Shown: positions 218-56,587 of the stretch, piece after piece
Position numbering within the stretch: the stretch's first letter is position 1
How the letters are laid out: each line of letters starts with the position of its first letter
Assembly: GCF_018977255.1 (NCBI RefSeq)
Contig: NW_024704742.1
Span: 104,658,001 to 104,722,000 of the forward strand
DNA from: Callorhinchus milii
Lineage: Eukaryota
Direction: 5' to 3'
DNA: 64,000 nt
Translations under genes and position numbers: made by a program
Notes under the pieces: model-generated
What the model saw: the letters and a program-made list of their open reading frames with translations, nothing else
Told to the model about the DNA's origin: nothing
Database searches by the model: none

Positions 218-594
218 TAATAATCCTTGCATTTGATATAATGCCTTATCAAGTCTTCAAGACATTTCAAAGCACTTCAAAAATTATACTGTAAGGTTAA
301 TTGACTATATATTTTGTGGGCAAAACGTGGCAGCCAATTGTGCACAGCCATGTCCCACAAACAGTCGGGAATTGAGTGAACAGATTATTATTATTTTTTG
401 AAAGGATTATTACCCCCGGAAAAGCGAGCCGCCAATCGACTAGCAATCGGGTTCCTACTTAGTGCTAGGTAAACAGAGACGTCTGGAGGAAGGAATTTTG
501 CCTAACATTTTGCCCTTCCCAGGAACCGAACGCAGATACTATCGCTTGCAAGGCGAGCGCTCTAAGCAACACGCTACATACATTGCAGGACTCC
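218..594 (-). mobile_element. tRNA-derived SINE, older long subfamily
   Basis: Reverse complement of the GGAGTCCTG head, a GTCTCTGTTTACCTAGCA body and an AAATGCAAGGATTATTAT tail. Confidence 0.8.
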
Positions 595-1319
595 ACTATG
601 AAGGAAATAATAAACCAGAATAAGTGGAAGGACAATCTCCGTACTTATTTGAAATTGGGAAAGTGGATTGAGTCTCCTTATACCCGAGGTAGACCAAATT
701 TAAATAAATAACACAATCAAAATAGAGTTTGTCATCTGGAAATAAATCAATTTGTATTTAATGTGGAATATTAATGTATAGTCAGACTGTCTGTGCCAAC
801 AACATCCCACAAACAAAGGTGAAAAAAATTGAGGGGGAGTGAATTTAGGACATTTAAATAAAAATCTTTCCCTGTGCCTAAGTTCATTTCCCTATCTGCC
901 TGCCTCGAAGTCAATCTCCCCTGTTGTTAAGTGCTCTGAGATGCTTCCCCTTGTGATGGATGCAAGTTGTTATTGTTGTTAAATTGACAGGGGCAATTCT
1001 AAAATTAAAACAGGAGAAAAAAACAAATGAAAAGTAGAAAAAGTAGAGTAAAAAATAAGTGCAAAATGGATATAGTGTTCGTTTATATTGTTTACATTGC
1101 ATTTATATTGGGAGGACATCCCAAGATGCTGGACTGTCGAGGGTTTGCACCTGAGCTGATGGTTGGATTCAAGATAGGTGGGCGATAAGGGAAAGATGGT
1201 GGCGGGCTTAGTGTTAGAACACAAGAATTTGCTGGGCGAAAGAAAACAAAGATCCATCTATCCTGGCAACATCCTGGCAGTAGCATGTCGTGTCCCAAAT
1301 TATACACTGTATCCTGAGA

Positions 1320-12329: not shown

Positions 12330-12483
12330 CCAAACAAAACGCAAATACTGCAGATGCTGGAAACCTGAAACAAAAACAGGAGTTCTGACGAAGGGTCGTG
12401 GACCCAAAACGTTGACTCACTTTCCTTTCTCCATAGATGCTGCCTGACCTGCTGAGTGTTCCCAGCGACTTGTTTTTGTTACA
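12330..12483 (+). mobile_element. Penelope-like (PLE) terminal repeat with an inverted 5' piece and a hammerhead motif
   Basis: 12380-12483 is the forward unit (CTGACGAAGGGTCGTGGACCC..AAACGTTGACTC...GATGCTGCCTGACCTGCTGAG). 12330-12378 is the reverse complement of the unit's 3' end. Same family as 38704-39190. Confidence 0.75.
12380..12418 (+). ncRNA. Minimal type-I hammerhead ribozyme motif (G12>A, likely inactive)
   Basis: GAGTT-CTGACGA-A-GGGTC-GTG-GACCC-AAAA-CG-TT-GACTC: helix I, CUGANGA core, helix II, and a GAAA core with one substitution. Confidence 0.65.
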
Positions 12484-14832: not shown

Positions 14833-15411
14833 TTAAGTTACATTTTGCAACAAAGTGGAATATATAATTCTGGTGATCTGTAGAACAGCAACGTGCAATG
14901 TGTACTGTACTATAACTGCTCCAAAGCCTTTATAGAAGCCAAATATTCCTTCTTCACGTTTGATTATGTTAATGCAGTCTCTCATTCCCTCATACTGAGT
15001 GTTAATTGGAAGTACTTCAAACCCAAGGTCTGTGTTGTCAATTATGGTACGAGTTCCTTGAATGTGAAGACGGTGAAGCACGGTTTCCAGTGGGTAAACT
15101 AAAACATCTGCAAAGAGGTTTGCAACAAAACTAGCTATAAGTTCTGGGAAATAAGCATCCAGCACAGTTTGCACAGAACTAGAACCCTCAGCGGGGTCAT
15201 GAAGTGGCGATTTTCTCCGTAGAATAAACAAAACAATCTTCTGGATGACAGCACTGATGACATAATGAAGTATTCCGTGTAAGACAGTAGGAAAGACCAA
15301 GACTCCAAGAGGAAGCAGACGTTTGCTGTGAGGCACACCCATTCCCAAAACTTTGCAAATACCTTCCTTTACACAATCTAGTATCCCTGGATTATCTCTT
15401 ATGATTTCACT
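14833..15411 (-). CDS. SLC25A46: SLC25A46 terminal coding exon 8 (SEIIRDNPG...[25 protein letters not shown]...LLQNVT*)
   Basis: 579 nt from a TTTTCAG acceptor to TAA; includes ORF 14833-15348; mitochondrial-carrier PxETxxxR signature. Confidence 0.98.
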
Positions 15412-16023
15412 CTGAAAATAGAAACAATAATTAAGTCAGTGATTTATTACTATTAGTACATAAGGAATCACAATCTACTGCAATTGAATTACACTTTAGC
15501 ACAGCTGTTTGAAGTTTAAAAAGCACTTCTACAATAATCAGAAAATGAACTAAAAGGTGATTAAAACATTTTGTGATTTTCTCAGTGTCTTGTTTGGCAA
15601 AACATTTATACAGAACTAAGTAGAAGAAATAATCAATAACACACTCTACCATGTTATCTGCATTTCAACAGATATCTTTGTTGCTCACTGCAGAAGATTG
15701 TACAATATTGTTAAAATACAATTTTGCTCAATATATTGCTCATGTATATGTAACTTCTGCTGAGCCAGGCAAACATTTGATAATATAAACTAATTCCATT
15801 GTATTTTTTATTCAGTTCTTGTAGCAATAGCTTTTAAACGTTCATATGCAGTTTTTGTAGCAAAGGATTTAAGAGTGTGGGCATCATAATCATTGAAGTG
15901 TTATTTTGCAAATCAGAAGCTGACCGCTGGAAAATTTACTCAGTATGTAATGCAGCAATTATTCCTACTTCATATGATCCATTAGAAATAGGTAGTAAAT
16001 TCGGCAGATATGTAAAATCTTAC

Positions 16024-26229: not shown

Positions 26230-26272
26230 CTTGCAAGACCAATACCAAAACCAGCAAACCTATTTATTTGAT
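26230..26272 (-). CDS. SLC25A46: SLC25A46 exon 2 (D)QINRFAGFGIGLA(S)
   Basis: 43-nt exon with CAG acceptor and GT donor; peptide matches QLNRFAGFGIGLAS. Confidence 0.96.
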
Positions 26273-36990: not shown

Positions 36991-38804
36991 GAAGGACCAT
37001 TTAGGAAGAACTAAAGGTAAGACATTAAAAGCTGAATCAGGGCCATGCTATTGTTGTATGTGTCTGCTATTTTTAAGTGAGTCCTTCCCAAAAAAAGTAA
37101 TAAAATTGGTCACTTCAATCCACGATTGTTTGTGGGACACTGCTGCTGCGTTTCACCCACAAATATACAGTCAATTCACTTTACAGTACATTCAGTGAAG
37201 TGCTTGAGATGACAAGAAGACATGAAAAGTGCTATATCAAATGCAAGGATTATTGTTACAAAAAGAAAACCACTGTAATTAGCCTTTGATCTGTAATCAA
37301 GATACTTGCCAGCAATAATCTCATCTATATAGATTCATAGAATGTTACGGCACAGAAGGAGGCCGTTCGGCCCATCGAGTCTGTGCCGGCTCTTTGACAG
37401 AGCAAGTCACTTTCACTAACCCCAATCACCAGCTTTCTCCCCATAACCCTCCAAACCCGTCTTCCCCAGACACCTGGGGAATGACATGATATGAATGACA
37501 TTCTGAAGAAATACTAAAATAAGTTTGCCATCAACTGAGTCTACAATGAAGTTAGGATCAAATGTTAGCAAACAGATTAACCACACTTAACCTCAAGTAT
37601 CTGCATGTTTAAAATATATAACAGACCTCACCTCAAATGATCTTCTGCTTTTAAATATTTTTACTTTGAAGAACAAATATTACATTTGACCGCTTTTCAA
37701 TTACTTCAATGCAGGTCACATATAAACTTTCTCTATGCCTGACCACCTCCCTATATCAGTGATCTCCTACCTCACTCTTCTACTTGGCCCCTCTGCTTGC
37801 TAAGCTGAGGCCCACTGCATATCCACCACCTCGCCATCAGTAGCCAGCAACTTTAGAAACTACCCACCCAACCTCCAGATCATATACATCTCCTTCGCCA
37901 CGAATATTCACCACTAGTCCTTAAATCCTGCCTAAAAATCTACGTCCGACTAAATTGATGGTCACCTCCCCTTTTACCCTCCTCTCTTCTCAGCAACTGG
38001 CATCATCACTGTGAAGTGCTCTGAGAGGTTCAATGTGAAAGCTGCCATGATCTGCCATGCAGGAAGCCAAACCTGCAGTCCAATGACCTGCAACTGAAAC
38101 TGGGGAACAATTTTTTTCATGGACCAATTATACTTTATTTTAATGCACATAAAACATCACATTATAAAGGGGTGGAGTTACCCTGTATAAAATCTTTCAT
38201 TTACATCGAAACTTTCACTTTCTATGTATGTCTCAAAGCAATTTACAAAATATAATTGATTACAACAGCAGGAGTGATTAGAAATTAAAATGAATAGGCA
38301 AATCTTTGAATGCCTTTCCACTGTTTACTCTCCACCCCCCCTTGACTTCCACCCTTCTCTAATAATAATAATATAATAATCCTTGCATTTGATGCAAGGA
38401 TTATTATATTATGTTTTGTCAAAACAAAGCAGGGGCAGGATTGATGTTTGGGGTTCAAGATTTGATGTTTGTTGCTAATTAAAACTTTTATTCCACAGAA
38501 ATAAGTGGGGGAGAGGAAGAAACAGAAGGTCTCATTAGTTTCATATAGTAGCTTATCATGTCATCAAAACATGTCTAAGCATTTCACTGTAAAGTGAAGT
38601 AACCATGTATTTTGCAGACAGTAATTTCCCCACAAAACAACCAGGAAGTGAATAATAATTTTATCTACCAGACCTGGAGTGCCAGACCTGGAGTGCTCAG
38701 TTTAACAAAATGCAAAATACTACAGATGCTGGAAACCTGATACAAAAACATAAGTAGTTGGAAACACTCAGCAAGTCAGGCAGCATCTATGGAGTAGGGA
38801 AATT

Positions 38805-38843
38805 GAGTCACCGTTTCAGGTCCACGACCCTTCGTCAGCACTG
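38805..38843 (-). ncRNA. Minimal hammerhead ribozyme motif (degenerate)
   Basis: CAGTG-CTGACGA-A-GGGTC-GTG-GACCT-GAAA-CG-GT-GACTC: CUGANGA and GAAA intact, U16.1 changed. Confidence 0.6.
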
Positions 38844-39056
38844 GGGCACGTTGGGAGGGAGAGGGTTTTAACAGAGAGTGGGGCAGGCAGTCTGGTCTCC
38901 CTGTTTTGTTGCAATCCCCCCCCAACTTTGTTTTGCATCACTAACACCCATTTAACCCATCATTCCCTGTCCTCTACCCCATTTTCTCCTGTGTCTCCCC
39001 TGCCCCGCCTCCTCCCCCCCCCCCCCCTCCGTGAGCCTCTCCCTCCCAACATGGCC

Positions 39057-39096
39057 CAGTTCTGAGGGAAGGACCGTGGACCCGAAACGTTGACTC
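39057..39096 (+). ncRNA. Minimal hammerhead ribozyme motif (degenerate)
   Basis: CAGTT-CTGAGGGAA-GGACC-GTG-GACCC-GAAA-CG-TT-GACTC: GAAACGTT intact, 5' core and helix II altered. Confidence 0.55.
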
Positions 39097-39189
39097 ACAC
39101 TTTCGCTTCTCCAACAGATGACCGCCTGCCTGACCTGCTGAGCGCTCCCGGCGACTGCTGTGGTTTTGTTTCCTCAGTTTAACATCTCA

Positions 39190-40330
39190 TCCACAGGACG
39201 GCATCGCCGACATCGCAGCCCTCCCTCAGCACTGCACTGCACTGCACTGGCGCGTCAGTCTCGCCGACACATCCAGACGTGGGAGCCGGATCCCACTGCC
39301 CTCCGGCTCAAGAGGCAAGAGCCCTCCCAGCCAAGCCAGGCGGACACATGCCCGTAATAATAATAATAATCCTTGCATTATTATTATTATTATTATTATT
39401 CCTGTACTGCATAGTTTTAAAAAAAAACAGCTGCGCGCAGCCACTGCAAAAGTCAAACGCGAGCCCCGGGGATTTGTGTGGGCGGACTCCTCCCCATTTC
39501 AGGGTCAGGGCCTGATCAAGGCCCTCCAGCCGCTTTATCGACTCACAACCGAAAGGCCGGGCTGACGAACCCCTCGTGCTTCCCCCCCCCAAATACTCGC
39601 CGGTAGATCCTGTCGCCTTCTCGGGAAGGGCAGCGCCCGCCGCCCCTTCCGCCGCAGTATCTGTCGCCGCCGCCCCTGCACTGTAGGGCGGTCTCTCCCC
39701 CCAGGGCCCAGCCGCCTGTCCCCGGAACCGGCCCTCGGTTATCCAGTCGTCCGTGCAGTAGTCCGATGACCTTGCGGACGGCGGCGCGGGGGCCTGGCGC
39801 TGATAGCCGTCCGACGATGCATCCCCGTAGTCCCGGGAGCTCAGGCCGCCGGCGAAGGCGTGCGGGCGCCGCGAATGCATCCGACAAACGAGTCCGTCCA
39901 AAGGCAAACGTCACCAACCGACACCGCGCGAGCGCCACCAACGGTCATCAACCGACACCGCGTGAGCGCACCTGACGTCAGCGCTTCCGAGCGCGGACCC
40001 CTCCTTTCTGCGACGCAGCTGACGCAACAGTTGCCTCTCTGTGTCGTCACTACCAGAAGCCGCGCTCCACCGCGCAAAGCCCCTGTGGGCCAGTGGGGGC
40101 GGTGCTGGTGGAGCAGCACTCAGGGGCTGTTTGGAGATGACCTGGCACCAAGGTGACATGCCTGGCAATGAGTGTAGGGCTTGAGACAGCCCTCCGTGAC
40201 CGTCTCTAGTCTGGTTCCTGAGCCAAGCGGGTCCGCAGTATTCCAGGCTACTACTCCAGCCGGGCTCCTCTGACAGACCAGTCACTGGGGGCAGAGAGTC
40301 ATCCACTCAGCTCCCGTTAACCCTGCAAGC
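39190..40330. promoter_or_regulatory. CpG island / SLC25A46 promoter
   Basis: The only strongly CpG-rich stretch in the window; spans exon 1. Contains a full CRE TGACGTCA (39973-39980) and an adjacent ETS-like CTTCCG (39984-39989). Confidence 0.85.
39601..39880 (-). CDS. SLC25A46: SLC25A46 coding exon 1 (MHSRRPHAFAGGL...WGERPPY...KATGST)
   Basis: ATG at 39880. N-terminus resembles vertebrate MHPRRPDGFDGLGY and ...WGEKSPPY. Lies in a CpG island. Phase-1 end at a CCG|GCGAGT donor fits exon 2. The 3' boundary is less certain (alternative GT donor at 39547). Confidence 0.85.
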
Positions 40331-40789
40331 CGAAGCCCTCACGGGTTGGGTGGTCCCAGCCGGACAAGTAACGGGAAAGTTTGTCAGACAGCAATATCAA
40401 TGGCAAGCTATGCGGGTTTAGTTAGACTTGCCAACTGGCGCGTAATACTTTGTGGAATTAGGTAAGCAGGATGCGTCCCTCCAGGGAGAGAGTGCGCATT
40501 CCTTTCCAGTAACCTATCTCTGGGTTTTCCATGAGTAGCAGGGATGCATGAATTCTCAGCTTGGTTTGGTTTCTCAAAATACCCTTTGAGAAGTTTTCCT
40601 TTTAAAATTGAGGGCACTCTGAAAATGTAGTAGCTGACCTTCAAATGGATTTGTAGACTTTGGGGATGATAATTTGATGCACAGGGGGACCTCCAGTAGA
40701 CTTGTTTGCACCCAGTTGAGCGAAAGTTCACCCTGAAAATGATCGTCTTTGACACTGTTGAGTTAAAAGTTCTTGAATTTGATCTAGGG

Positions 40790-53409: not shown

Positions 53410-54588
53410 GGTCAGTGATGGTGATGGGAGGAGTTTACTGATGGGGAGGCGTTTAGTGATGGTGATGGGAGGCGTTTAGTGATGGGGAGGAGTTTAGTGA
53501 CGGGGAGGAGTTTAGTGATGGGGAGGAGTTTAGTGATGGGGAGGAGTTTAGTGATGGGGAGGAGTTTAGTGATGGGGAGGAGTTTAGTGATGGGGAGGAG
53601 TTTAGTGATGGGAGGAGTTTAGTGATGGGGAGGAGTTTAGTGATGGGGAGGAGTTTAGTGATGGGGAGGAGTTAGTGATGGTGATGGTGATGAGTTAGTG
53701 ATGGTGATGGGGAGGAGTTAGTGATGGTGATGGGGAGGAGTTGGTGATGGTGATGGTGATGAGTTAGTGATGGTGATGGGGAGGAGTTAGTGATGGTGAT
53801 GGGGAGGAGTTAGTGATGGTGATGGGGAGGAGTTAGTGATGGTGATGGGGAGGAGTTAGTGATGGTGATGGGGAGGAGTTGGTGATGGTGATGGGGAGGA
53901 GTTGGTGATGGTGATGGGGAGGAGTTGGTGATGGTGATGGGGAGGAGTTGGTGATGGTGATGGGGAGGAGTTGGTGATGGTGATGGGGAGGAGTTAGTGA
54001 TGGTGATGGGGAGGAGTTGGTGATGGTGATGGGAGGAGTTGGTGATGGTGATGGGGAGGAGTTAGTGATGGTGATGGGGAGGAGTTAGTGATGGTGATGG
54101 GGAGGAGTTAGTGATGGTGATGGGAGGAGTTAGTGATGGTGATGGGGAGGAGTTGGTGATGGTGATGGGGAGGAGTTGGTGATGGTGATGGGGAGGAGTT
54201 AGTGATGGTGATGGGGAGGAGTTGGTGATGGTGATGGGGAGGAGTTGGTGATGGTGATGGGGAGGAGTTAGTGATGGTGATGGGGAGGAGTTAGTGATGG
54301 TGATGGGGAGGAGTTGGTGATGGTGATGAGTTAGTGATGGTGATGGGGAGGAGTTGGTGATGGTGATGGGGAGGAGTTAGTGATGGTGATGGGGAGGAGT
54401 TAGTGATAGTGATGGGGAGGAGTTAGTGATGGTGATGGGGAGGAGTTAGTGATGGTGATGGGGAGGAGTTAGTGATGGTGATGGGGAGGAGTTGGTGATG
54501 GTGATGGGGAGGAGTTAGTGATGGTGATGGGGAGGAGTTGGTGATGGTGATGGGGAGGAGTTAGTGATGGTGATGAGTTAGTGATGGA
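53410..54588. repeat. G-rich minisatellite (18-mer GGGGAGGAGTTTAGTGAT then 23-mer GGGGAGGAGTT[A/G]GTGATGGTGAT)
   Basis: Direct reading of a ~1.2-kb tandem array. Confidence 0.97.
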
Positions 54589-54599
54589 GGTGAGAGCTC

Positions 54600-54680
54600 A
54601 GGCAGTTCTCGTGCTGCGTGTCCATAGCAACCGTCGCCAACACAACAGCGGCGGTGGTGCAGACCTGAGGTTGGGAGCAG
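54600..54680 (+). other. TMEM232: Probable non-coding first exon of TMEM232 (start approximate)
   Basis: Unique CpG-containing island between two satellites, ending at donor CAG|GTAAGA (54680/54681), ~1.9 kb upstream of the first coding exon. Confidence 0.55.
54618..54631 (+). promoter_or_regulatory. RFX X-box, candidate TMEM232 promoter element
   Basis: GTGTCCATAGCAAC fits the 14-bp X-box pattern GTNNCC-AT-RGCAAC; lies 49 nt upstream of a strong CAG|GTAAGA donor. Confidence 0.65.
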
Positions 54681-54694
54681 GTAAGAGGGACACA

Positions 54695-55957
54695 AACACT
54701 CTCTCTCTCTCACACACTCACAGTCACACACTCTCACACACATACTCTCACTCACACTCAGTCACACACTCAGTCACAGTCACTCAGTCACACACACACT
54801 CACACTCAGTCACACACTCAGTCACACACACACTCACACTCAGTCAGTCACACACACTCAGTCACACACTCAGTCAGTCACACACTCAGTCACACACTCA
54901 GTCACAGTCACACACGCAGTCACACACTCACTCACACTCAGTCACACACTCAGTCACAGTCACACACACTCAGTCAGTCACACACACTCACACTCAGTCA
55001 GTCACACACACTCAGTCACACACTCAGTCAGTCACACACTCAGTCACACACTCAGTCACAGTCACACACGCAGTCACAGTCACACACTCACTCACACTCA
55101 GTCACACACTCAGTCACACACTCAGTCACACACACACTCACACTCAGTCAGTCACACACACTCACACTCAGTCAGTCACACACACTCAGTCACACACTCA
55201 GTCAGTCACACACACTCAGTCACACACTCAGTCACAGTCACACACTCAGTCACAGTCACACACTCAGTCACAGTCACACACTCACTCACACTCAGTCACA
55301 CACTCAATCACAGTCACACACACTCAGTCACACACACACTCACACTCAGTCACACACACACTCAGTCACACACTCAGTCAGTCACACACACTCAGTCACA
55401 CACTCAGTCACAGTCACACACTCAGTCACAGTCACACACTCACTCACAGTCACACACTCACTCACACTCAGTCACACACTCAGTCACAGTCACACACACT
55501 CAGTCACACACACACACACTCAGTCACACACTCAGTCAGTCACACACACTCAGTCACACACTCAGTCACAGTCACACACTCAGTCACAGTCACACACTCA
55601 GTCACACTCACAGTCTCACACACTGACACATACTCACACACAGTCACACACTCACTCACACACACTCACAGTCACACACTCACACATACTCTCACACACA
55701 CACACATTCAGTCACACTCAGTCACACACTCTCACTTACACCACTCTCACTTACACACACACACACAATCTCACTCTCAAGCACACACTCACACACTCAC
55801 ATACACTCACACACAATCACACACACACACACTCTCTCACCCTCACACTCTCTCACCCTCACACACACTTTCACACATACTTTCCCTCACTCTCACTCAC
55901 ACACTCACACATTCTCACACTCTCACACACATACTCTCACACTCTCACACAATCTCA
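54695..55957. repeat. CA-rich compound satellite (CAGTCA/CACACT variants)
   Basis: Direct reading; source of the spurious 491-aa SHT-rich ORF. Confidence 0.97.
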
Positions 55958-56587
55958 CAGGTGATGAAAGTGTGGCTAAGGGTCTCGGCGGTCTGTGGTG
56001 AGAGGCAGTGGCGGAGGCGTGCAATTTTTTGGGAAAATAGCTCGATGTGTGTGTAAAAAAAATAAACTCAGTCTGGAGAGCAGAAATCCTTACAGTAAAC
56101 CGGCGAGTATGAGTGGTATTCAGGATGTGCACCTGTGCCTTGAACAGCAAGGACAGGACACAGTAAGGACCTTCCAGTCTGCACAGAGTTACTGACTTGT
56201 TCAATGGGCCTGGAGGGTGGAGGGGTAGAGAGATCAATAGATCAAACTAGATGGAGAGGGAGAAATTCCACCTGGGTCTAGATTTATTCTATGTAGCATT
56301 TCAGAGTGGACTTCCACTTCTAGTACAATATGCCATGTGACATATTGACTGGTACCCAGGTATGATGGAGGCAGAAGCCCTCTCCTAACCCCCCGGCTCA
56401 CCTAACACACCAGAAGTTGACCCACCTTAGATTTCCAGCTTTCTGATACTCTGGATTTTTGTTTGATGTGGCCTCTAATCTCTGATCTCTCCTATTTATT
56501 AATCTGTTTACTATGTCTTTGCCTTTTATTGATTGTGATTGTAGGTATAGTTTGCTAAGAGGGACATACAGTCTACAGCCTGCAAAG

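Follow-up and report, generated by a model that had tools for sequence, protein, structure and literature searches.

An inverted pair of decayed hammerhead-bearing repeats in SLC25A46 intron 1 of Callorhinchus milii, probably left by a single Penelope-like element insertion

Introduction

Penelope-like elements (PLEs) have been reported from all species studied, the elephant shark Callorhinchus milii included (PMC4350176). Two hallmarks distinguish insertions by endonuclease-positive (EN+) PLEs: a 5'-truncated copy lies in inverted orientation next to the 5' end, and one of the two ends has a tail of 30-40 bp (PMC8557442). The protein of a lizard PLE, Poseidon, nicks and extends both strands in vitro, its reverse transcription begins at two sites whose spacing corresponds to the tail, and the Poseidon hammerhead, which cleaves only with the protein, is dispensable for insertion in vitro (PMC11167929). 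Here we analyse a 64,000-nt stretch of C. milii DNA (contig NW_024704742.1, positions 104,658,001 to 104,722,000; hereafter the window), in which an earlier note, made from the letters alone, had placed an inverted pair of Penelope-type repeats with minimal hammerhead ribozymes at the start of intron 1 of SLC25A46. Very probably the pair, whose members we call units A and B, is a single old 5'-truncated insertion by an EN+ PLE, with both hammerheads mutated and predicted to be inactive. It shares with the described EN+ insertion units (PMC8557442, PMC11167929) the inverted truncated arm, a one-sided 35-nt tail and variable 5' truncation, and differs from them in that no open reading frame (ORF) is left and in a clear 8-12 nt duplication.

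The closest described motifs are the minimal hammerheads in the pseudo-long terminal repeats (pLTRs) of metazoan PLEs (PMC4209133). Likenesses to them include a type I core, a nucleotide that separates position 9 from 10.1, a G10.1-C11.1 pair, a palindrome at 15.2-16.2, the absence of helix III, a helix I of 4-5 bp, thousands of dispersed solo copies, and opposite-strand pairs 100-700 bp apart. Helix II, however, has 5 bp and a 3-nt loop here and 7-8 bp in the Schistosoma motifs of that paper, and the local copies here are damaged. No chondrichthyan is named in the text passages of PMC4209133 and no shark or skate stands in its supplement file 2. By definition, animal retrozymes are tandem repeats that carry type I hammerheads and are arranged head to tail (PMC7229834; bioRxiv 10.64898/2026.07.22.740005), and one chondrichthyan genome is described as having both PLEs and retrozymes (bioRxiv 10.64898/2026.07.22.740005). 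The non-LTR (long terminal repeat) retrozymes of these two sources resemble the repeats studied here in being non-coding, in their type I hammerhead and in their kinship to PLE pLTRs. Retrozymes nevertheless form head-to-tail arrays in which two or more motifs are complete, whereas the two units at this locus are inverted and their minimal motifs, one on each strand, are both broken; the retrozymes of PMC7229834 have canonical motifs and circular RNAs.

Results

Structure of the inverted pair and its insertion site

BLAST aligned 38864-38739 (minus strand) with 39036-39172 (plus strand) at 75.9% identity over 137 nt (E 1e-19), confirming that the inverted pair exists. The two units of about 140 bp that had been proposed did not hold, however: with limits set from contig cover and nhmmer, unit A measures 186 nt, including a 35-nt tail, and the tail-less unit B ~282 nt (Table 1). 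The contigs are assembled C. milii sequences matched at 80% likeness, from runs X1 and X2, which are DNA-sized, and runs X5 and X7, which are RNA by guess; most of them come from paralogous copies, and the flanks of the host short interspersed element (SINE) are included in the counts. High-copy cover begins at 38891 for unit B and records extend to 38883 for unit A; the junction, in which the two units meet 5'-to-5' (head to head), lies at about 38884-38891, and the whole insert is 469 nt long. Upstream of the hammerhead, A reaches ~45 nt and B ~165 nt, and their end points differ. In both DNA runs, 54 contigs apiece have loose ends with mixed flanks at 38704, and the last 4 nt of the tail of A overlap the left copy of a flanking repeat. 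A 24-nt inverted match (83%) between 38420-38443 and 38912-38935, the latter in the upstream part of unit B, is chance or a far older fragment.

The flanking repeat, 12 nt long and exact, encloses the whole pair, and no duplication was seen around arm A alone or arm B alone. As 4 of the 12 letters are common to the element's own end, the duplication is 8-12 nt long; when window pairs of equal size were drawn at random, 12 letters were shared in 23/20,000 draws and 8 letters in 289/20,000. The pair also splits an older SINE. The left and right flanks match consecutive parts of other window copies (12679-12810/12841-12970 and 40801-40924/41011-41150), three uninterrupted SINE copies in the window have the duplicated motif once, and in runs X2 and X5 the loose-end consensus before 39172 consists of host-SINE sequence. 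No joint skipping the insert exactly was found among the 15 of 51 joints listed, the contigs showing presence only. The 12-nt repeat around the pair, the split SINE and the tail on A only therefore make one insertion likely.

A third family copy, copy C, which the earlier note had missed, was found by BLAST 2.4 kb past the SLC25A46 stop, its hammerhead being antisense to the gene. Copy C has the same two-arm plan as the A/B pair, with shorter arms, and is younger. Its forward unit opens with the first helix I base, a G that lengthens this helix to 5 bp, and stops no more than 2-3 nt from the end of B. Its candidate target duplication matches at 6/8 letters only. Counting substitutions only, divergence from the family majority over 38743-38842 is 11/100 in A, 11/100 in B and 1/98 in C; unit B is richer in G+C and indels than A. 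Both EN+ hallmarks are present: the inverted 5'-truncated copy at the 5' end (the A/B junction near 38890, and copy C), and the one-sided 35-nt tail, carried by A and by the inverted arm of C and by neither B nor the forward unit of C. This structural plan is a stronger argument for a PLE origin than the motif of the metagenome contig considered below. The proposal of a non-autonomous retrozyme-like family, in turn, is not supported, since inverted arms, unequal 5' extent, a one-sided tail and a target duplication make up the structure known from autonomous PLEs whose insertions are 5'-truncated (PMC8557442); there is no tandem array of units in 37500-40500, and none of the three family copies in the 64 kb is tandem.

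Table 1. Features of the insertion, its surroundings and copy C (window coordinates)
Feature	Position	Strand	Evidence
Unit A: shorter inverted 5'-truncated copy with 3' tail; sense to pre-mRNA	38704..38889	-	
Unit B: longer 5'-truncated PLE 3'-end copy, no tail; antisense to pre-mRNA	38891..39172	+	
35-nt 3' tail on A; inverted on copy C; absent from B	38704..38738	-	alignments
Unit A decayed minimal hammerhead; CUGACGA-A and GAAA intact	38805..38843	-	
Unit B decayed minimal hammerhead; CUGAGGG core, helix II 3/5 pairs, ACGU intact	39057..39096	+	
12-nt target-site duplication, left copy	38696..38707	+	exact direct repeat
12-nt target-site duplication, right copy; host SINE resumes here	39173..39184	+	exact direct repeat
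Host SINE, left part, decayed	38537..38695		nhmmer matches to other window copies and alignment
Host SINE, right part	39185..39350		nhmmer matches, alignment, contig depth at 39196-39251
Copy C: inverted tail 12333-12378, then forward unit 12380-12480	12333..12480		
Coding portion of SLC25A46 exon 1, start codon ATG at 39880	39601..39880	-	translation equals N-terminus of P0029, C. milii SLC25A46
GC splice donor G/GCGAGT, non-canonical, intron 1 of SLC25A46	39595..39600	-	contigs and annotated protein P0029

Anatomy of the hammerheads

Rfam at its gathering threshold found no hammerhead in the whole window, only eight tRNA-like SINE heads, and at E up to 10 it found no hammerhead over 38500-39400, only eight chance matches; the motif was established by manual anatomy and by the family majority in the contigs. 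Contig records matched numbered 4,273 in X1 and 4,236 in X2, counts that cover the hammerhead family and the SINE flanks. At the three sites where A differs, the majority letters by X1 depth are U2.1 (99.8%), U16.1 (98.4%) and C11.1 (65.4%) among the 40 of 50 rows listed, the majority letters in X2, X5 and X7 point in the same direction, and B and C hold the majority letter at all three. The family motif consists of the helix I 5' strand, CUGACGA, an extra A, GGGUC-GUG-GACCC, GAAA, CG, UU and the helix I 3' strand. This majority, with copy C, shows every feature listed for PLE minimal hammerheads, namely the core, the extra nucleotide, G10.1-C11.1, palindromic ACGU, H17 and a short helix I, so that the PLE-type minimal type I motif with an extra A after A9 and palindromic ACGU, as first proposed, is upheld for the family majority. 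One variant is common in the family: C11.1 becomes U (35%), a one-sided change. At 38794-38824, the consensus of 52 clipped contigs (X1) is a variant motif with decayed CpGs and a lost palindrome, which suggests an older subfamily or decayed copies.

The earlier note had also read a full CUGANGA...GAAA-CG-UH in each unit. Neither copy has it literally, A reading GAAA-CG-GU and B CUGAGGG, while the lesions that the same note saw in both local copies are real. Positions U16.1 and G12 are essential for hammerhead catalysis. Unit A has G at 2.1 (38839), U at 11.1 (38818) and G at 16.1 (38811); the ACGU palindrome is gone with 2/4 dimer pairs lost, the first helix I pair is G-G, and 10.1-11.1 is G-U. 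In unit B, the lesions lie in the core and in helix II. Both local hammerheads are predicted on this anatomy to be inactive.

That they were "probably silenced", which implies selection, was not borne out. The 39-nt motif of A carries 3/39 changes, no excess over the unit-wide 11/100, and neutral decay therefore suffices. There are three CpG dinucleotides in the motif (7-8, 11.1-12 and 15.2-16.2), and methylation decay alone would thus often kill the hammerhead. The single difference of copy C from the majority is the catalytic G12 changed to A, at a CpG, and U11.1 of A and A12 of C are two outcomes of one CpG.

Predicted folding

The 469-nt insert is predicted to fold at -217.3 kcal/mol (z -8.3, with 0/100 shuffles as good), with 130 pairs between the arms, of which 13 are G-U, and longest runs of 24, 22 and 18 bp; the long intronic double-stranded RNA that the inverted arms had been expected to form is borne out as a prediction. 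In the pre-mRNA ensemble, helix II of A has a probability of <1e-15, also in a 1.2-kb context, and its mean pairing with arm B is 0.90. Folded in isolation, the motifs do not outperform their shuffled versions (z +0.56 for A, +1.31 for B and -1.05 for C), and folding energy therefore lends the ribozyme no support. Dimer cleavage (Lunse et al.) is reviewed in PMC6765202; A and B lie on opposite strands, so no cis dimer is possible. A nested double-hammerhead of two C copies can be drawn in which every helix pair is standard (-20.5 kcal/mol).

Relation to Penelope-like proteins

We scanned collections of viral contigs, prokaryote genomes and metagenomes for the motif, which gave 0 matches in viral contigs, 0 and 1 (L002) in prokaryote genomes and 1 (L001) in metagenomes. 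In L002 it is the 22-nt pattern alone that is matched, which was taken as chance. A PLE profile run against the viral contigs gave 6 pattern matches, 0 of them confirmed. Metagenome contig L001 carries the 3' part of a PLE ORF at 306-1298 (minus strand) with a cysteine-rich linker and a GIY-YIG domain (E 4.9e-5); the ORF is 43-45% identical to proteins bearing a reverse transcriptase (RT), and many of the 28 longer relatives found (E up to 1e-20) include an RT domain. Some 160 nt beyond the ORF stop, L001:117-145 forms an intact-looking minimal hammerhead with C17, whose core and GGGUC/GACCC helix II agree with those of the C. milii copies. L001 shows the company that the motif keeps and not family membership. 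By analogy with its cysteine-rich linker before GIY-YIG, the PLE clade of the C. milii family is likely Neptune. In the window itself, the best tblastn match to PLE proteins (P0003 at 36617-36384) was rejected, as it falls in a remnant of an L2-type long interspersed element (LINE) and the protein has an extra endonuclease domain.

Host gene and host SINE

The last SLC25A46 exon in the window (14836-15435, minus strand) carries a Mito_carr domain and is 100% identical to C. milii SLC25A46, and 83-88% identical to the next 8 shark and ray proteins listed, in keeping with the chondrichthyan host assumed from the start. Exon 1 ends at 39601, where contigs X5 #24 and X7 #32 (two studies, RNA-guessed) match no further. 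The annotated protein P0029 and these contig ends therefore indicate that intron 1 begins with a GC donor at 39600. The Asp of ...GSTDQINRF combines the G of exon 1 with the AT of exon 2, and in the annotated protein this stretch appears as ...KATGST-DQINRF. Intron 1 is of the GC-AG type, with exon 2 near 26270. An alternative GT-GAGT donor near 39549, ~50 nt downstream, was rejected on the contigs of the two studies and the annotated protein. Gene identity and the end of exon 1 place the pair within intron 1, as claimed, at 410-900 nt from the donor where ~400-900 nt had been given, and the motif of unit A is indeed sense to the pre-mRNA.

The split SINE is putatively SacSINE1-like. Two near-perfect AT-rich palindromes with a common core lie one on each side of it, at 38360-38412 and 39355-39400; the arms of the first, at 38368-38412, are 21 nt long and 3 nt apart, and both palindromes are probably tail-to-tail ends of L2/SINE copies. 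In C. milii, 218,294 SacSINE1-type copies have been counted (PMC5499810). The eight tRNA-like heads found by Rfam, all on the plus strand (9372, 18665, 24041, 35463, 42382, 48412, 59620 and 63908), agree with the tRNA-Ala-derived CmiSINEs of that paper. Farther off, 54551-56053 is a ~1.5 kb low-complexity CA/CT-rich repeat with long stop-free frames.

Discussion

The single EN+ PLE insertion that we favour could have arisen as follows, on the pattern of PLE biochemistry (PMC11167929). A GIY-YIG domain would nick both target strands, staggered by 8-12 nt, and each 3' end would prime reverse transcription on the element RNA. Priming at the distal start would give arm A with its tail, and priming at an internal start 35 nt upstream would give the tail-less arm B. 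Both complementary DNAs (cDNAs) would stop early and then be joined 5'-to-5', after which the arms would decay independently and neutrally to 11 substitutions per 100 each. At a rate of ~1e-3 per site per million years (PMC5499810, which itself shows the rate to be uncertain), this 11% would be an age of the order of 100 million years. During transcription of SLC25A46, the antisense of B would emerge before A and, by prediction, capture it. Inverted-repeat hairpins are editing substrates of ADAR, and hyper-editing is abundant in the elephant shark generally (PMC5625713); the locus would be a neutral hairpin, at most an incidental ADAR substrate, and not a ribozyme.

Several observations weigh against this account. 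Neither tblastn with 28 PLE proteins nor a profile (0 matches) found an RT/GIY-YIG remnant in the window, and the scans of viral, prokaryote and metagenome collections found no locus joining the family's flanking sequence to an ORF. The similarity of L001 is limited to ~28 nt of motif, and L001 is another family; the two-primer mechanism is likewise an analogy drawn from the lizard Poseidon element, also another family. Beside the insert, ~55 nt of the left SINE flank are missing or replaced, so the empty site is not clean. No helix covariation is shown among the three window copies and L001, in which the helix II stems are identical and the loops differ. The C double-hammerhead is less stable than an alternative dimer (-32.1 kcal/mol) or two monomers (-25.4 kcal/mol). 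Finally, A and B have 1 non-majority letter in common among 13 comparable sites, and this, together with their 76% identity, would by sequence alone allow two separate insertions.

Besides the single insertion, we considered a reading in which the hammerhead fold serves as a boundary and not as scissors: a large share of the genomic copies would start at helix I's 5' edge and not at the cleavage site, the ribozyme structure setting the end of the RNA or cDNA. This seems unlikely to us. Another reading, in which a non-autonomous, retrozyme- or SINE-like mini-element derived from a PLE end propagates itself, with short RNAs starting at the helix I edge as templates, we consider improbable. Copy C does start at the first helix I base, contigs break at 38838 into mixed sequence (73 in X1 and 65 in X2, agreement ~0.4), contig depth drops from 26,127 at 38839 to 14,045 at 38849, and solo "monomer" copies of retrozymes are described (bioRxiv 10.64898/2026.07.22.740005). 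However, the break lies next to 38839, a mismatch that A alone carries, which favours clipping, and its counts rest on the 24 of 1,108 loose-end rows listed. Units A and B, moreover, extend ~45 and ~165 nt upstream of the motif to different points, tandem units are absent, and the inverted geometry and one-sided tail are features of PLE by-products.

Separate insertion of the two arms, with B in place before A entered it or the adjoining DNA in reverse orientation, would explain why the arms are only 76% identical and why B is richer in G+C and indels, and PLEs tend to insert beside earlier copies (PMC6765202). The single duplication around the whole pair, with none seen around either arm, the equal substitution load of 11/100 each and the same two-arm plan in copy C stand against this order of events and make it quite improbable. 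Very improbable is a co-option by which the GC-AG intron 1 would have its splicing or turnover controlled by the hairpin or by the sense hammerhead. The 130 predicted pairs (runs of 24, 22 and 18 bp) lying 430 nt from a weak GC donor and the general hyper-editing in elephant shark (PMC5625713) might point to it, but the arms have decayed as fast as free copies and show no sign of compensation, the sense motif is sequestered and has lost U16.1, and such hairpins arise automatically from the insertion geometry.

The locus itself is of little consequence. Transposon debris of its kind was described in 2014, and this genome is expected to contain thousands of similar stubs. No literature account of hammerhead ribozymes in Callorhinchus was found, and file 1 of PMC4209133 and the preprint supplements may list chondrichthyan motifs; the family may be undescribed for C. 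milii, while its kind is already known. Should the fold act as a boundary after all, high-copy fold-back mini-elements of ~100-150 nt would follow, which may be re-mobilised on their own, and they would offer a genome-scale handle on the role of PLE hammerheads. The modest value of the pair lies in its being a clean fossil of PLE integration, with priming sites 35 nt apart, nicks staggered by 8-12 nt and 5'-to-5' joining. It also points to a high-copy elephant shark family with an intact minimal hammerhead, and it is this family, not the local copy, that could be useful.

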